NCBI GenBank assembly: GCA_965238275.1
Contig: OZ250186.1
Coordinates: 192,001-256,000 of the forward strand
Length of the DNA: 64,000 bases
From: Nitrosopumilus sp.
GTDB taxonomy: Archaea; Thermoproteota; Nitrososphaeria; Nitrososphaerales; Nitrosopumilaceae
Reading direction: 5' to 3'
In this document: positions 1 through 6,209 of the stretch, one piece after another
Layout: every line of letters starts with the position of its first letter
Position numbering within the stretch: position 1 is the stretch's first letter
Made by a program: the position numbers and the translations under genes
Notes under the pieces: model-generated
Told to the model about the DNA's origin: nothing
The model's database searches: none
Seen by the model: the letters and a program-made list of their open reading frames with translations, nothing else

Positions 1-1616
1 GCAGGCAGCCGAGCATGCCTCGCAGCTAAGGGAGGCGCGCGCGGCCAACTCGGCGCTGGCAGCCGAGAACCTGGGCATCAAAAGCCGCCGCTCCAAGAGG
101 CGGCTCCGGGAGTCGCCCGGGCCTGCGCCGGACCCGTTCAGGAAGGTCGTCTGCCTGCGCACCGGCCGGAACCCTCCCCCGATATCTGAAAAGAGGCTGG
201 TCGACCTGCACTCCTGCCCGCACGGCCACGCCCTCTCGACGGGGCCCACCGAGGTGACCTTCCGGGTAGTCGAGGAGATCATCGACGGGAAACTGACTGC
301 CATCCAATATACAGTCGTCCGCAGGTACTGCAGGGAATGCGGCAGGCAGTTTGCCCCCGAGATCCCCGGGGTCGTCCCAGGGGGGCGGTTCGGTGCCAGC
401 CTGACGTGCCTGGAGACTACCATGAGGATGCACGGCATCCCCTACGGCATCATCTGCAGTCTGATCAACATAATCCACCACGCAGGCCTTGCCAAGTCGA
501 CAGTCATCAGCCACGTGGACGCCGTTACGGGATCCCTCCACCCCCTCTACGAGGAGATGCTCGGGGAGATATTCTTCTCAGAGCATGTCTTTGGCGACGA
601 GACGAGCTGGAAGATAGCCGGGATACTGTACTGGCTGTGGGTGCTGGTAGGTGACGACTCGACTGTCTTTCACGTGGACAAGAGCCGGGGAGGCGACGTC
701 CTGGTGTCGCTGCTTGGAGGGTACGGCGGCCACGTCACCTCCGACTCCCACGCCCCGTGGAACCGCATCGGCAAGACCCACCAAAAGTGCCACTACCACT
801 ACCTCCGCGAGATCCTCCGCACCCTGACCATGAAATCCCCCGGACCCGAATTCAAAAAGTTTGCCAAGGCCCTGAAGGGGATAATCATCGATTCATGGTA
901 CCCGGACAAGGGGCTTGACCCGGACGACGACGGGGCCGCGCGAAACCTCAAGGTGCGCAACCTCCAGGCCCGGGTGAGGCGCCTGATCTCTGGCAGCTAC
1001 ACAGACGCCCACTGCAAGAGGTTTGTCAAGCGGCTGCGGCGCGAGATCACCCACCTGTTCCCATTCATCCGCCTCAACACAAAGTGCCATAACAACGATG
1101 CCGAGCGTCCCCTGCGGCCCAGCGTCGCATCCCGGAAGGTCTCAGGCGGCAGCAAGAGCCTTGCCGGCGCATACAACCACGCCGTCCTGGCCACCGTCCG
1201 CGAGACGTGCAGGAGGCGCGGAGTCAACCCGCACGACTTTTTGGTCGACTACATGCACGGCCTCGTCGAAAAAATTCCGGCAGCAGCAGCAACAGTCGCA
1301 TAAATCCTGCAAAATCCACTCCCTGACTGCCCCACGCAGACCCGTCGCGCCGGCAGTCTGGCGCATGTCAGGCTGCCGTACCGGCTGTCACCCGATCCCG
1401 GCACAACTCAGCGCCCCGGCCGCGCCAAAAAAGGCCACTTCGCAAACCCGATCACCGGATCGGCCAAAACATAACTCGGCCGGACCCTCCTCCCCGCCCG
1501 GAAAAAACCCAGAATAATGCCAATTAAATGGGCATTTACAGCCGAAAACGTAGCTCGGTTGGTAATTAATCGGGGCAAATCAGGCATGGAATCGCTTCGC
1601 AAAGGCGACCTCTTAC
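1..1616 (+). mobile_element. IS66-family insertion sequence, left part outside window; right end ...GCAAAGGCGACCTCTTAC
   Basis: Contains an IS66-type transposase. Ends in TTAC (1613-1616; IS66 ends are GTAA...TTAC) exactly where homology to tnpB begins at 1617. Confidence 0.8.
2..1303 (+). CDS. IS66-family DDE transposase (5' truncated by window edge)
   Basis: Frame is open from base 2 (QAAEHASQLREARAANSALAAEN coiled coil, CPHG...CREC zinc finger). Motifs GDETSW, SDSH, QKCHYHYLRE and NNDAERPLR are typical of IS66 TnpC. Confidence 0.9.
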   Translation, partial: QAAEHASQLREARAANSALAAENLGIKSRRSKRRLRESPGPAPDPFRKVVCLRTGRNPPPISEKRLVDLHSCPHGHALSTGPTEVTFRVVEEIIDGKLTAIQYTVVRRYCRECGRQFAPEIPGVVPGGRFGASLTCLETTMRMHGIPYGIICSLINIIHHAGLAKSTVISHVDAVTGSLHPLYEEMLGEIFFSEHVFGDETSWKIAGILYWLWVLVGDDSTVFHVDKSRGGDVLVSLLGGYGGHVTSDSHAPWNRIGKTHQKCHYHYLREILRTLTMKSPGPEFKKFAKALKGIIIDSWYPDKGLDPDDDGAARNLKVRNLQARVRRLISGSYTDAHCKRFVKRLRREITHLFPFIRLNTKCHNNDAERPLRPSVASRKVSGGSKSLAGAYNHAVLATVRETCRRRGVNPHDFLVDYMHGLVEKIPAAAATVA

Positions 1617-2028
1617 AAAGAAAGGCGGAATTTCAAGACGCGTGGAACACGCACATACAAGCCAGAGATGCGCTGCCTGCGGGGTAGTGGACAAGAAATC
1701 CAGGAACGGCGAATCATTTGTCTGCGTCTCATGCGGATGGTGCCACCATGCCGACAAGAACGCGGCAAAAAACATTTTGGATAATGACTGTCTCCATACG
1801 GAGGAGACTGGCGGCCAAGCCCACGGGAATCGTGGAGGCACCATTGCAGGTGTCGAGGTCGTCACAAGGCGCGAGGATCACGGATCGGATGGTTCTGGAA
1901 TGAACAATTCGACAGGTCGGCTTGGATCCGACAACGACGACAATATTGGAAGGTCTGACAGAGCGCCGGAAAGAGCATCAGGACATGCTACAGAGAGATC
2001 TGTTTGCACGAATTTTCGCTCGCCGCTA
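1617..2028 (+). pseudogene. tnpB: 3' remnant of a second tnpB element copy (Zn finger, RuvC-III, omegaRNA region, right end), interrupted by IS66
   Basis: Near-identical to 5653-6108 (HTSQRCAAC...CVSC...HADKNAAKNI). Homology stops at CGCCGCTATA (2021-2030). Confidence 0.88.
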
Positions 2029-2057
2029 TAGCAGGAATTTCATGTGACGTATGATGA

Positions 2058-2426: not shown

Positions 2427-2567
2427 GCGGTTCCATGGAATGCGCGTTAAAAGGCATGCCCAGAGATGCAGCGGGAGGCACCTAGGGATCCAGAGGGCAG
2501 GATGGGTTACAGTATATGGCATTTTCCTGCAGGCATACCATCACGCACAGAACCCAGATTATAATGA

Positions 2568-2687
2568 AATGCCAGCACTGTTGCTTCCCAAGGGCTCTCG
2601 CATCTTAGTAGCACAACAGCGACATCAGGTTTGACTTCCAAGTTCGGAATGGGATTGGGTCGCACCCTGACGCTATGGCCGGCTTGA
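2568..2687 (-). rRNA. rrf: 5S rRNA (stand-alone, ends approximate)
   Basis: Reverse complement reads GCCGGCCATAGCGTCAGGGTGCGACCCAATCCCATTCCGAACTTGGAAGTCAAACC...GGGAAGCAACAGTGCTGGC, with the conserved CCCATTCCGAAC loop and terminal helix. Confidence 0.93.
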
Positions 2688-2789: not shown

Positions 2790-4598
2790 ATGACCCACCG
2801 CGTTGCAGTGCTTGACAAGGAGCTGTGCATGCCAAGAAAGTGCGGCCTGGAGTGCATAAAGTACTGCCCGGTCAACAAGTCAGGCGCAGACTGCATAGCA
2901 CTTGACGAGGAGACAAAGAAGGCCAGAATAGACGAGGACATCTGCAACGGCTGTGGCATATGCGTCAAGGTCTGCCCGTTTGATGCAATCACCATAGTAA
3001 ACCTGGCAACAGAGCTTGCAACAGACAAGATCCACCAGTACGGCCCCAACTCGTTCAGGCTTTACAGGCTTCCTGCACCAAAGAAGGGCCAGGTCGTCGG
3101 ACTCTTGGGAAGAAACGGGATGGGAAAGAGCACAGTCATCAACATACTCTCCGGCAGCATAAAGCCGAACCTTGGAAGGTACGAGGATCCCCCGGAATGG
3201 GACGAGATTCTGAAATATTACAGCGGAACCGAATTAAAACACCACTTTGAGATGATCATGCAAAAGCAGATCCGCGCCTCAATGAAGCCCCAGCAGGTAC
3301 ACAGCATAGCGCAGGCCTTTGGCGGGACCGGAAGGGAGCTGCTGGACAGGTACGACCAGAGGGGCGTGTCGCGTGAGATGGTAAGGGAGCTGGGCCTGCA
3401 AAACTCCATGGAGCAGCCGTTGGCTGAGCTCAGTGGGGGGGAGCTTCAGAGGCTGGCAGTGGCAGCAGCAGCCTCCCGGGATGCCGAGTTTTACTTTTTT
3501 GACGAGCCGTCCTCGTACAACGACGTATTCCAGAGGACGTCGGTGGCCCGCGTGATACAGGGGCTGGCAGACATTGGAAGGAGCGTGATGGTAGTCGAGC
3601 ACGACCTTACCCTGCTTGATTTCCTGAGCGACCAGATAGAGGTGCTGTACGGGGAGCCTGCAGCATACGGGATAGTCTCAAGCGTTCTTTCAACCAAGGT
3701 CGGAATCAACGTGTTCCTTGACGGGTACCTGCCGGGAGAAAACGTCAGGTTCAGGGACAAAAAGTTCTCCTTTGATGCATCTTCCTCATCGACTGACATA
3801 TTCCAGGAGGGAAGCGACACAGTCTCGTACCCCGGCATCACCAAGAGTTATCCCTCGTTTTCAGTGGCAGTAGAGCCGGGACGGGTGCGAAAGGGCGAGG
3901 TCCTAGGGATAATGGGCGCAAACGCCCTTGGCAAGACGACCATGATGAAGATGATTGCAGGTAATGTGGAGCCGGATACTGGCAGCATCAAACAGAACGT
4001 AAAGATAGCATACAAGCCGCAGTACCTGCAGGGCGACATTCCAGCAGAGGTGGTTACCGTGCTTGAGAGGGCAAACGGCGCCTCCATAGAGGGTAGTGCC
4101 GAAGAGGAGCAGATTCTGGAACCGCTAAAGATCAAAAAACTCTACAACAAGCAGGTAAGATCCCTGTCCGGAGGAGAGCTGCAAAAGGTTGCAGTGGCAT
4201 CGTGCCTGTTGCAGAAGGTGGACCTGTATGCGCTTGATGAGCCGTCTGCATTCCTGGACGTGGAGGACAGGATCGCAGTGGCAAAGTTCCTGCAAAAGTT
4301 CGTCCGCTCGTTTGGCAAGTCGGCAATAGTGATAGACCATGACCTGCAGCTGATGGACCTAATCTCGGACAGCATGGTGATATTTGAGGGGGAGTCTGGT
4401 GTGGCAGGCCATGCCACCTCCCCCATGCCAAAGGCTGCGGCCATGAACAGGTTTCTCAAATCCCTGGAGATCTCCTTTAGAAGGGACGAGAGAAGCCTCA
4501 GGCCCCGCGTAAACAAGGCTGGAAGCAGGCTGGACAAGAGCCAAAAGTCATCAGGCGACTTTTACTATAGTGAAAAGCGAAAGTCCGTGCAATTTTGA
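2790..4598 (+). CDS. rli1: ABCE1/RLI1 ribosome recycling ATPase (last codons supplied by inserted element)
   Basis: N-terminal Fe-S cysteines (CxxxxCxxxCxxxCP; CxxCxxCxxxCP) and two ABC domains (GRNGMGKST, LSGGELQR; GANALGKTT, LSGGELQK). Confidence 0.97.
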   Translation: MTHRVAVLDKELCMPRKCGLECIKYCPVNKSGADCIALDEETKKARIDEDICNGCGICVKVCPFDAITIVNLATELATDKIHQYGPNSFRLYRLPAPKKGQVVGLLGRNGMGKSTVINILSGSIKPNLGRYEDPPEWDEILKYYSGTELKHHFEMIMQKQIRASMKPQQVHSIAQAFGGTGRELLDRYDQRGVSREMVRELGLQNSMEQPLAELSGGELQRLAVAAAASRDAEFYFFDEPSSYNDVFQRTSVARVIQGLADIGRSVMVVEHDLTLLDFLSDQIEVLYGEPAAYGIVSSVLSTKVGINVFLDGYLPGENVRFRDKKFSFDASSSSTDIFQEGSDTVSYPGITKSYPSFSVAVEPGRVRKGEVLGIMGANALGKTTMMKMIAGNVEPDTGSIKQNVKIAYKPQYLQGDIPAEVVTVLERANGASIEGSAEEEQILEPLKIKKLYNKQVRSLSGGELQKVAVASCLLQKVDLYALDEPSAFLDVEDRIAVAKFLQKFVRSFGKSAIVIDHDLQLMDLISDSMVIFEGESGVAGHATSPMPKAAAMNRFLKSLEISFRRDERSLRPRVNKAGSRLDKSQKSSGDFYYSEKRKSVQF

Positions 4599-4633
4599 GA
4601 TCCTTTTTAAGAAAATAAATCCCAACTACAGGT

Positions 4634-5995
4634 ATGATTGTCAGCAAAATCATCAAGATAACACAATCTCGGGAACTATCACGCAAGATCGTGAAGTGTT
4701 CCCGGGAAACTGACATCGTTTACGACATGACAATCATGATGAAACTTGCACATCCCAGAATCACGCAGTTTGACATCAACAACCTGATAACGAGATGGCG
4801 CAGGGAATTCAGCCTGACCAGCAGCGTCTGCATGCATGAGGCCGCCTCAAAACATGCTTTCCAGGCGGCAGTCAAATTCGGCAAGGCAAACCGGCTCAAG
4901 CACAACAAGCGCATCTGGCGCAAGAAACAGATCAAGATGGGGAAAAAGAAAACGTACAGGCACAATCGGTGGACCGAGCCGTCCGGCCTGATGAGGCGCG
5001 GCAGGAAAACAACCAGGCTGCGCTCGCTGAATTCACGCGGAAAGCCAAAACTGCGAGACAGCGGAGCCGTATTTCTGCCCGGACTCGGGGAAGTAAGGCC
5101 GCGCACGAGGGTTCCAGAAGGTAGACTGGTGTCATTCCAGATGGTTGATATCACAGGCAAAATCACGCGCAAGACCAAGGATGGTGATCGCGAATTCAAA
5201 CTGCATTTGCAGACAGAAGTCCCAGATACCGAACCCGCTACAGGCGGATGCAAGGCGGGGCTGGATCTTGGAGTCAGGCACCTTGCGGCAGTCGCAGACG
5301 AGGACGGGAACGAAAAACTGTACAATGTCCCGGGAGGCTGCAAGAGGCATGACGGCGACAGGATTGATCATCTGAAATCGCTCAGATCAAGATGCCAGAC
5401 AGGCTCCAGAAGATGGAAAGAGATCGGACGCAAGATAGCGCATGAATTGAAAAAGACATCAAACAGGCAAAAACACAACGAGATAGGCATTGCCCGTCGG
5501 ATAACAAAAGGACTGTCCGTATTGTTCTTGGAAGACCTGGATTTGACCAAGATGAGGAGATCCAACGGAGCAGCCTCAAAGACTGGGCTGAACCGCGAGA
5601 TGGCCTATTCCAGAATGGGCGAGTTCAGGATCCAGTTTGAATGGCAGATGAAAAAGAAAGGTGGAATTACAAAACGCGTGGAATCCGCACATACAAGCCA
5701 GAGATGCGCTGCCTGCCAAATAGTGGATAAAAAGTCCAGAAACGGCGAATCATTTGTCTGCACCTCATGCGGATGGTGCCACCATGCCGACAAGAACGCG
5801 GCAAAAAATATTTTTGATAGTGACTGTCTCCATACGGAGGAGACTGGCGGTCAAGCCCACGTGAATCGTGGAGGCACCATACGAGAAGATCAGGGAGGAG
5901 GTAAGAAAATCGTGGAGGCACCATTGCAGGTGTCGAGGTCGTCACAAGGCGCGAGGATCACGGATCGGGTAGTTCTGGAATGGACGACTCGATAG
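4634..5995 (+). CDS. tnpB: TnpB RNA-guided endonuclease (RuvC triad apparently intact)
   Basis: RuvC-I GLDLGVRHLA, RuvC-II VLFLEDLDL, zinc finger CAAC...CTSC, RuvC-III HADKNAAKNI. No tnpA adjacent. Confidence 0.93.
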   Translation: MIVSKIIKITQSRELSRKIVKCSRETDIVYDMTIMMKLAHPRITQFDINNLITRWRREFSLTSSVCMHEAASKHAFQAAVKFGKANRLKHNKRIWRKKQIKMGKKKTYRHNRWTEPSGLMRRGRKTTRLRSLNSRGKPKLRDSGAVFLPGLGEVRPRTRVPEGRLVSFQMVDITGKITRKTKDGDREFKLHLQTEVPDTEPATGGCKAGLDLGVRHLAAVADEDGNEKLYNVPGGCKRHDGDRIDHLKSLRSRCQTGSRRWKEIGRKIAHELKKTSNRQKHNEIGIARRITKGLSVLFLEDLDLTKMRRSNGAASKTGLNREMAYSRMGEFRIQFEWQMKKKGGITKRVESAHTSQRCAACQIVDKKSRNGESFVCTSCGWCHHADKNAAKNIFDSDCLHTEETGGQAHVNRGGTIREDQGGGKKIVEAPLQVSRSSQGARITDRVVLEWTTR

Positions 5996-6108
5996 GTCGG
6001 CTTGGACCCGACAGCGACGACAATATTGGAAGGTCTGACAGAGCGCCGGAAAGAGCACCAGGACATGCTACAGAGAAATCTGTTTGTACGAACTTTTGCT
6101 CGCCGCTA
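5830..6108 (+). ncRNA. putative TnpB omegaRNA/reRNA scaffold (5' boundary uncertain)
   Basis: Region after RuvC-III is conserved between both copies to the right end although the reading frames differ. Hairpins GTCGG...CCGAC and ACAGA-GNRA-TCTGT (GAAA at 6075-6078, GAGA in the other copy). Confidence 0.6.
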
Positions 6109-6209
6109 TACAAGTGATTTACGGTGCCTCTTGTGCGGAACGGAAATCAGGACGCAATTGATCATGACCATGCCCGGAACAGGCCGCATCAGGGCAATAG
6201 CAATACCTG

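Follow-up and report, generated by a model that had tools for sequence, protein, structure and literature searches.

Background

TnpB proteins are usually explained by their partnership with scarless Y1 or serine transposases. Which transposase, then, is responsible for the tnpB gene that interrupts the end of the ABCE1 (RLI) gene in the archaeon Nitrosopumilus sp.? The gene lies in a stretch of 64,000 nucleotides (contig OZ250186.1, positions 192,001 to 256,000; the whole stretch is hereafter referred to as the window), and the initial annotation of the window noticed that it is carried between imperfect terminal inverted repeats with TA at both junctions. It was proposed that the element may be mobilised in trans by an IS630-like DDE transposase or, alternatively, that it is an IS607-like element with a TA crossover core. 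The present comparison makes it quite probable that the element is a non-autonomous IS630-type transposon, the sole cargo of which is an active-looking TnpB with a predicted guide-RNA scaffold. The proposed mobilisation in trans is supported by the ends of the element, by the duplication of TA, by a co-resident subfamily of IS630 (D-type, described below) and by searches for Y1 and serine transposases that gave no match.

The genome of the window (G000) is complete in one contig of 2,216,668 bp (99.92% complete). It was compared mainly with the sister genome G017, its closest relative, the ABCE1 proteins of the two being 92% identical in amino acid sequence.

Results and discussion

The ends are shared by a family of copies

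The window element contains no transposase, tnpB being its sole long open reading frame (ORF) in the ORF list and Pfam analysis (Table 1). The left 27-mer (4566-4592) agrees with the reverse complement of the right 27-mer (6084-6110) at 20/27 positions, and with the right end of a second, 5'-truncated copy (ending at 2030) at 21/27; these hand counts reproduce the figures first reported. The truncated copy (1617-2030) is 83% identical to 5653-6110 and has a fragment of the TNB domain. That both copies finish with the same sequence followed by TA, CGCCGCTA-TA, and that no transposase lies inside were likewise confirmed on the sequence and its ORFs.

A repeat search (seed 6) of the window copy alone returned 11 internal inverted pairs of similar quality (75-87%), and the terminal pair was not among its results. 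The terminal repeat of this copy, taken alone, is not beyond chance, and its support comes from the family. A blastn search of G000 with window positions 4501-6200 gave 40 matching segments, comprising 18 copies paired with both ends, plus fragments; 17 of these copies measure 1.49-1.67 kb and one is interrupted to 7.4 kb. The left junction reads TATAG in 17/18 two-ended copies and TGTAG in 1/18, the right junction CTATA in 17/18 and CTATG in 1/18. A C stands directly before the left TA in 18/18, the base past the right TA being variable. The consensus left end, TATAGTGAAAAGCGAAAGTTCGTGCAA, agrees with the reverse complement of the consensus right end, TATAGCGGCGAGCGAAAGTTCGTGCAA, at 23/27 positions, with a perfect inner block of 17 nt. 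Collection of all copies in the genome thus gave the same ends throughout, with TA on both sides in 17/18. The explanation that the terminal repeat and the TA are chance features of a single copy, which the search of the window copy by itself would allow, is hardly conceivable against ends common to 18/18 two-ended copies and junction sequences that are fixed.

Identity between the copies ranges from 77.5% to 98.9%, with a young group of 5-8 copies at 97-99%, and an ORF of 474-493 aa is found in 11/18 two-ended copies. The 98-99% identical young copies argue for recent movement of the family. The window copy is older, its best identity to any other copy being 93.4%. It also carries a 44-nt insertion, which corresponds to a gap in every other row of the RNA alignment described below and shifts the tail of tnpB from the usual frame of the family past about aa 417. 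Contigs from two DNA-like runs and one RNA-library run lack this insertion, the position of which is ambiguous by up to 17 nt.

Some peculiarities of individual copies may be mentioned here. The left inverted repeat is split by other DNA in the three copies at G000 644,183, 828,588 and 2,148,269, two of them breaking at an identical position (...GCGAAAG followed by TTCGTGCAA), and the near-identical flanks of the copies at 828,588 and 2,148,269 suggest a duplicated segment or another element targeting the site. The long tnpB frame extends in most copies to the extreme end of the element (...NFRSPL), and the next codon, made up of the duplicated TA and the first flank base, is a stop only if that base is A or G; among the 11 intact copies, seven stop at this codon and four continue into the flank.

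Empty sites and duplication of TA

The window junction reads ...GAC TTT TAC TA(element)TA C AAG TGA, and removal of the element with one TA leaves an ABCE1 gene ending ...GAC TTT TAC TAC AAG TGA. This clean end, predicted in the initial annotation to be restored by excision, was borne out by the relatives. ABCE1 of G017 ends ...GAC TTT TAC TAC AAA TAG, with a single TA, and the proteins of 17 further loci of relatives that reach the gene end (L003-L018) finish in ...YYK/R plus one residue, one of them in ...YHKH. No native end ...YYSEKRKSVQF was found among them; this tail is thus derived from the element, and comparison of G017 and the other ABCE1 orthologues with the window junction indicates an empty site that held one TA. 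A 5-nt CTATA target of the IS605-like kind was also considered; it predicts a long read-through tail on ABCE1, which the orthologues exclude.

A second orthologous pair comes from the G000 copy at 1,821,559, which lies between ...AAAATCATGC-TA and TA-GTCCTTATTTTTAACC, the corresponding site of G017 reading ...AAAATCCTGC-TA-GCCATTATTTTTAACC with one TA. Judged from these two orthologous empty sites in G017, TA is duplicated upon insertion. Two other copies lie in repeated DNA, the uninterrupted paralogues of which have a single dinucleotide at the site. A contig from an RNA library of a 90-95% similar relative reads ...TACTA and then diverges from the element, and has the look of a further empty site. 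The copy at G000 316,709 yielded no empty site, the flank alignments ending 78 and 868 nt before the junctions.

Transposases of the two genomes and the D-type IS630 elements

Searches with the Resolvase family gave 0 matches in both G000 and G017 (control positive in 12/14 known genomes). An IS607-like element, moved by a serine recombinase through a circular form with a TA crossover core, would carry TA on both sides with no true duplication, and a 2-bp crossover core is indistinguishable by sequence from a 2-bp duplication. Against this alternative stand the lack of any recombinase match in either genome, the description of IS607 elements as devoid of inverted repeats (excerpts of the review PMC13565253) and the resemblance of the present repeats to those of IS630 elements. 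The IS607-like reading put forward in the initial annotation is close to refuted and must be regarded as very improbable.

The Y1_Tnp family likewise gave 0 matches in G000 and 0 in G017 (control positive in 6/14 known genomes). Movement as in the IS1341 group of IS200/IS605 would involve a Y1 TnpA acting on single-stranded DNA, insertion 3' of CTA and an inverted repeat that is a by-product of similar hairpins at both ends. The invariant C-TA at the left could be read as the target motif of such an element; that of IS608 is TTAC. The ends do not fold as Y1-type hairpins, the left end forming no stable hairpin (-0.7 and -3.1 kcal/mol; z +1.85 and +0.44), they form a true inverted repeat of 23/27, and the same repeats bound DDE transposase genes. 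With these observations and no Y1 partner matched in either genome, this explanation is slightly less credible even than the IS607-like one.

DDE transposases of the IS630 type are abundant, DDE_3 having 35 matches in G000, 32 above the cut-off. This family search covered G000, and the transposases of G017 discussed below were found using P0001 as query. The IS630 elements of G000 fall into several subfamilies with differing end repeats, and one of them, the D-type, has end repeats patterned like those of the TnpB element. The D-type copy at 1,873,253 (Table 1) carries an uninterrupted transposase gene (337 aa, HTH and DDE_3 domains), and its ends agree with those of the TnpB element at 24/28 positions on the right and 19/27 on the left (hand count). 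A second copy (2,123,842-2,124,945) is also intact and two further copies in G000 are broken. The similarity between the D-type IS630 and the TnpB element is limited to the end repeats. The copy at 1,873,253 sits in a run of TAC repeats (1,873,215-1,873,255 and 1,874,349-1,874,365).

The correspondence is closer in G017, the TnpBs of which are 49-58% identical to the window TnpB. Six full-length TnpB elements of this genome (loci L076-L081, which overlap L030 and L049 by coordinates and were counted once) are bounded by TATACTGACGCGCAAAAGTT... and TATACCGACGCGCAAAAGTT..., and five uninterrupted transposase genes belong to D-type IS630 elements with repeats TATACTGACGCGCCAAAGTTTTTG.... The repeats of the G017 TnpB elements differ from the IS630-D pattern at 0-2 positions in 24. 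The repeats start with TAG in both the TnpB element and IS630-D of G000, and with TAC in both in G017. On this comparison, the TnpB element of each species bears the repeat type of the co-resident IS630. The D-type subfamily thus provides a candidate autonomous partner in both genomes. A survey of 301 genomes of the order found TnpBs with at least 49% identity in G000 and G017 only, and uninterrupted D-type transposases with at least 60% identity in those two alone; because the two genomes are related, the co-occurrence does not count as statistically independent evidence.

Neither the G000 copies nor 29 related loci have an IS630 gene within 4 kb of tnpB, and no composite autonomous form with both an IS630 gene and tnpB was found in the copies and loci examined. 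Since no DDE_3 transposase is present inside any copy, the element is to be considered non-autonomous and not an insertion sequence in its own right. A solo left end at G000 1,082,170-1,082,260 has 23 nt identical to the TnpB-element repeat and, after a further 20 nt, shares an 18-nt stretch with the leader of the D-type IS630. It gives a hint only, of what might be a relic of an autonomous IS630 whose repeats were exactly those of the TnpB element.

Mobilisation by another DDE transposase, for example that of a lost master copy with exact repeats, or a family that is now immobile in G000, is an unlikely alternative, though one of more weight than the IS607-like and IS200/IS605 readings. It draws on the solo end, if that is a decayed master, and on the fact that no IS630 repeats in G000 come closer than 4/27 mismatches. 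The young copies, with their indication of recent movement, the intact D-type transposase in G000 and the near-perfect match of the repeats in G017 speak against it.

The TnpB cargo

The product of tnpB matches OrfB_IS605 (1.2e-13) and Cas12f1-like_TNB (3.8e-15) in Pfam, both above the cut-off, and PDB sequences of ISDra2 TnpB (5.2e-9), other TnpB and Cas12f chains and the one giant-virus TnpB-like protein among the listed matches (9b0l, 3.4e-8). An alignment of 17 family members has D216, E305 and D391 invariant, along with the cysteines C363, C366, C381 and C384 of a CxxC..CxxC zinc finger. The three acidic residues are taken here to be the RuvC catalytic residues, from alignment to the TnpB chains of PDB and from known motifs. 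Among the 11 intact G000 copies, the ratio of non-synonymous to synonymous substitution rates (dN/dS) has a median of 0.18 in the core of the protein (48 pairs with dS above 0.05) and is 0.55 in the tail past RuvC-III (35 pairs). These ratios indicate that TnpB is under purifying selection, with the catalytic residues and the zinc finger kept, and the cargo looks functional.

Scans of viral and metagenomic sequences returned distant TnpBs only, at 11 viral loci (at most 43% identity over part of the protein) and 80 metagenomic loci (at most 41% identity over part of the protein). None of these 91 loci has an IS630 gene, which is uninformative for the family of the window. Other TnpB families are present in G000, though the genome has no Y1 or serine transposase match; they account for about 9 of its 34 TNB-domain matches (171,837; 577,394; 1,130,379; 787,096; 1,933,306 and others). 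The family at 171,837 and 577,394 is represented by two copies that share a truncated 1.2 kb only, and its ends are not definable.

A predicted guide-RNA scaffold at the right end

Between the G000 and G017 families, conservation of the last ~270 nt of the element is much higher than that of the proteins. RNAalifold, applied to 11 sequences, predicted 64 pairs, with 98.4% of cells paired; 12 of the pairs have compensatory changes on both sides, against 0-4 pairs in a control in which the partners were slid by 1-3 columns. In the prediction, the right inverted repeat forms the 3' helices together with upstream sequence, so that the repeat would serve the transposase and the RNA alike. The modelled structure looks like an omega-RNA-like scaffold, the 3' part of which is formed by the right inverted repeat. 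An Rfam search of the region found no family. In the RNA-library run X18 the element contig has a depth of 153 against about 8 for ABCE1, a ratio that corresponds to copy number and gives no evidence of expression.

Asymmetry of the flanks and a possible target-adjacent motif

The bases beside the duplicated TA differ between the two sides. Positions being counted in the direction into the element, the base at -1 is C in 20/21 left ends of G000, the lone exception being badly diverged, and at the right ends it is C in 10/24 and G in 9/24 (Fisher p = 1.3e-4 for C, left versus right). T at -3 is enriched on the left (16/21 ends) and on the right (14/26, the 26 including two IS630-D ends). A C is also found at the left -1 position in 6/6 ends at L076-L081 and 1/1 at L075, the right ends of those loci not being C-specific. 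When pooled, C occupies -1 in 27/28 left and 14/33 right ends (p = 4.9e-6), the right set including the two IS630-D ends and seven ends of L076-L082 and excluding that of L075. Sites of the form C-TA-C are occupied by 7 of the 18 two-ended copies, always in the orientation that places the C on the left (7/7). The left C is already present in both empty sites and thus belongs to the target.

G or C beside the TA and T at -3 on both sides fit a symmetric preference of the transposase; the C confined to the left does not, and fits selection for a target-adjacent motif (TAM) of TnpB. The element's own right end reads ...GCTA-TA, with an A where the empty site has C, so that occupied sites would be spared and emptied sites cut.

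The following course of events may be envisaged. The D-type IS630 transposase would bind the repeats of the TnpB element in trans, excise the element and paste it into a TA. RNA transcribed through the right end would take the adjoining flank as guide, and TnpB would cut the emptied site, (...C)-TA-flank, left after excision. Recombination with a sister copy would return the element to the cut site. Such restoration would be limited to insertions with a C just 5' of the left TA, which would explain the C on the left side alone in the surviving copies. The model follows that of donor-site re-cutting by IS605 TnpB (excerpts of Meers et al., preprint 10.1101/2023.03.14.532601) and the TAMs of Fanzors, which are made up in part of the 5' duplicated bases (excerpts of PMC13565253). 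The TAM and the restoration of sites are held with less confidence than the IS630-type nature of the element, their chances being put at somewhat under even.

Several observations weigh against the proposed explanation. The case is comparative throughout, transposition and cleavage alike being deduced from aligned sequences. Between the closest IS630-D repeats of G000 and the TnpB-element repeats there are 4-8 mismatches over 27-28 positions, the matching IS630 is single-copy there, and recognition in trans in that genome is not assured. The window copy itself is old (at most 93.4% identical to the others) and disturbed by its 44-nt insertion. Of the paralogous empty sites, one has TG and the other AA, which backs a 2-bp slot and not TA itself. 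In three DNA-like runs no contig spans the element and no empty allele was seen, which is not proof of absence. The RNA structure was derived and scored on one and the same alignment, essentially of two or three lineages, and something other than a TAM might account for the C on the left.

Relation to known systems

Excerpts of PMC10691335 (Altae-Tran et al. 2023) describe a branch of TnpBs that accompany IS630 DDE transposases and an HTH protein within symmetrical ends, and solo TnpBs in such ends that are thought to be moved in trans; the branch is restated in the part of the 2026 review PMC13565253 that deals with it. The mobilisation proposed in the initial annotation is supported but less novel than implied there, since IS630-associated and solo TnpBs with symmetric ends are already published in those excerpts. 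The arrangement has been known in outline since 2023, and the window element is a well-resolved new case and no new category. The full-text literature search gave no account of this archaeal family, of the asymmetric flanks or of the TAM of any TnpB carried by an IS630, the search not extending to the supplements of PMC10691335, which might list the family.

The element resembles that branch (DDE-6), as portrayed in the excerpts of PMC10691335, in having TnpB within symmetric inverted-repeat ends of IS630 type, with the 3' end of tnpB near the end of the transposon. DDE-6 is described there as having TnpB in cis with an IS630 DDE gene and a separate HTH protein, several members being in giant viruses. 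The window family differs in having no IS630 gene within 4 kb, a partner IS630 devoid of tnpB and an archaeal (Nitrosopumilaceae-like) host. Fanzor1 of eukaryotic Tc1/mariner elements is similarly a TnpB-family nuclease in a TA-duplicating inverted-repeat transposon; unlike it, the window protein is prokaryotic, with the size and domains of an ordinary TnpB, and is no closer to the giant-virus protein 9b0l than to ISDra2 TnpB, as judged from the E-values given above. With the IS1341 group of IS200/IS605 the element shares tnpB as its sole gene and, as predicted, an RNA scaffold that has sequence in common with the 3' end of tnpB and extends to the right end; unlike that group it has inverted repeats and a TA duplication, with neither end hairpins nor a Y1 partner match. 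Like the derivatives of IS630 that resemble miniature inverted-repeat transposable elements (MITEs), it has the repeats of an autonomous IS630, a TA duplication and no transposase; unlike them, it carries a functional-looking gene of 1.4 kb and a predicted structured RNA, its homology to IS630 being in the repeats only.

The TnpB families of the two species are only 55-58% identical, yet each bears at its ends the repeats of the IS630 in its own host. A more far-reaching suggestion, at present doubtful, is that an archaeal TnpB lineage has long been a pure passenger of IS630, with a TAM consisting of the TA duplication and a 5' C, and may have been captured separately from the published IS630-TnpB branch. 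If true, the flanks would be a natural record of guide-RNA re-cutting of emptied donor sites in the service of prokaryotic cut-and-paste DDE transposons, and the system a prokaryotic counterpart of Fanzor1 in mariner. Excerpts of PMC13565253 call the association of TnpB with DDE transposases rare in prokaryotes and ask whether a guide-RNA system helps cut-and-paste elements. The family offers a natural test set for this question, with about 18 two-ended copies (11 with near-full-length tnpB), the ends of which are all defined, a candidate transposase and a flank asymmetry that predicts a TAM, and its compact archaeal TnpBs (~480 aa) with a predicted RNA scaffold are available for nuclease testing.

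Features of the window and further observations

The features of the element and its surroundings are listed in Table 1. The IS66-family transposase fragment at the start of the window adjoins the truncated copy of the TnpB element.

Table 1. Coordinates of the TnpB element, its parts and neighbouring features (window positions unless G000 is stated)
Feature	Coordinates	Strand	Remarks
TnpB element	4568-6108 (1.54 kb)		Starts TAG..., finishes ...CTA
Target C directly 5' of left TA	4565	+	Candidate final base of the TnpB target-adjacent motif
Left TA of target-site duplication	4566-4567	.	Read from sequence and empty sites
Left terminal inverted repeat, 25 bp	4568-4592	+	Likeness to IS630 D-type repeats
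tnpB ORF, 453 aa	4634-5995	+	Pfam OrfB_IS605 and Cas12f1-like_TNB; intact core; 479-483 aa in other copies
Conserved structured RNA, omega-RNA-like scaffold (predicted)	5800-6108, start approximate	+	Includes right inverted repeat, stops at element end
Copy-specific 44-nt insertion	5864-5907	+	In loop of predicted RNA
Right terminal inverted repeat, 25 bp	6084-6108	-	Family end comparison
Right TA of duplication	6109-6110	.	With next flank base, forms the codon following ...NFRSPL in most copies
Native ABCE1 end, C AAG TGA	6111-6117		Right of element
ABCE1 (RLI) gene	2790-4598	+	Final 9 codons and stop supplied by inserted element
Second copy, 5'-truncated	1617-2030	+	tnpB 3' end, RNA region, right inverted repeat, TA
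D-type IS630 copy	G000 1,873,253-1,874,348		TA-flanked; ends TATAGTGACGCGCAAAAGTTTTGACAAA and (reverse complement) TATAGTGGCGATCAAAAGTTCTTGCAAA
IS66-family transposase gene fragment	2-1303	+	DDE_Tnp_IS66, 1.8e-26; runs off window start
5S rRNA gene	2567-2686	-	Rfam RF00001, 80 bits; just upstream of ABCE1

Distant relatives of the window TnpB (28-41% identical) occur at L031 and L050 (G249) and at L033, L051, L086 and L091 (G056-like), in elements that are bounded by a different inverted repeat, GGGAATTATATAC..., and show 8-bp direct duplications (TTTAGCTT, TAACGAAG and TAATTATA). No transposase partner of this repeat family was identified. The presence of these relatives in 8-bp-duplicating elements suggests that the TnpB clade may have switched DDE vehicles. 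A 13-mer of the GGGAATTATATAC repeat has 24 occurrences in one of the two genomes and 22 in the other, the control having 0-1, and the occurrences form mostly pairs 1.4-2.1 kb apart, one pair of 0.3 kb being MITE-like in look.

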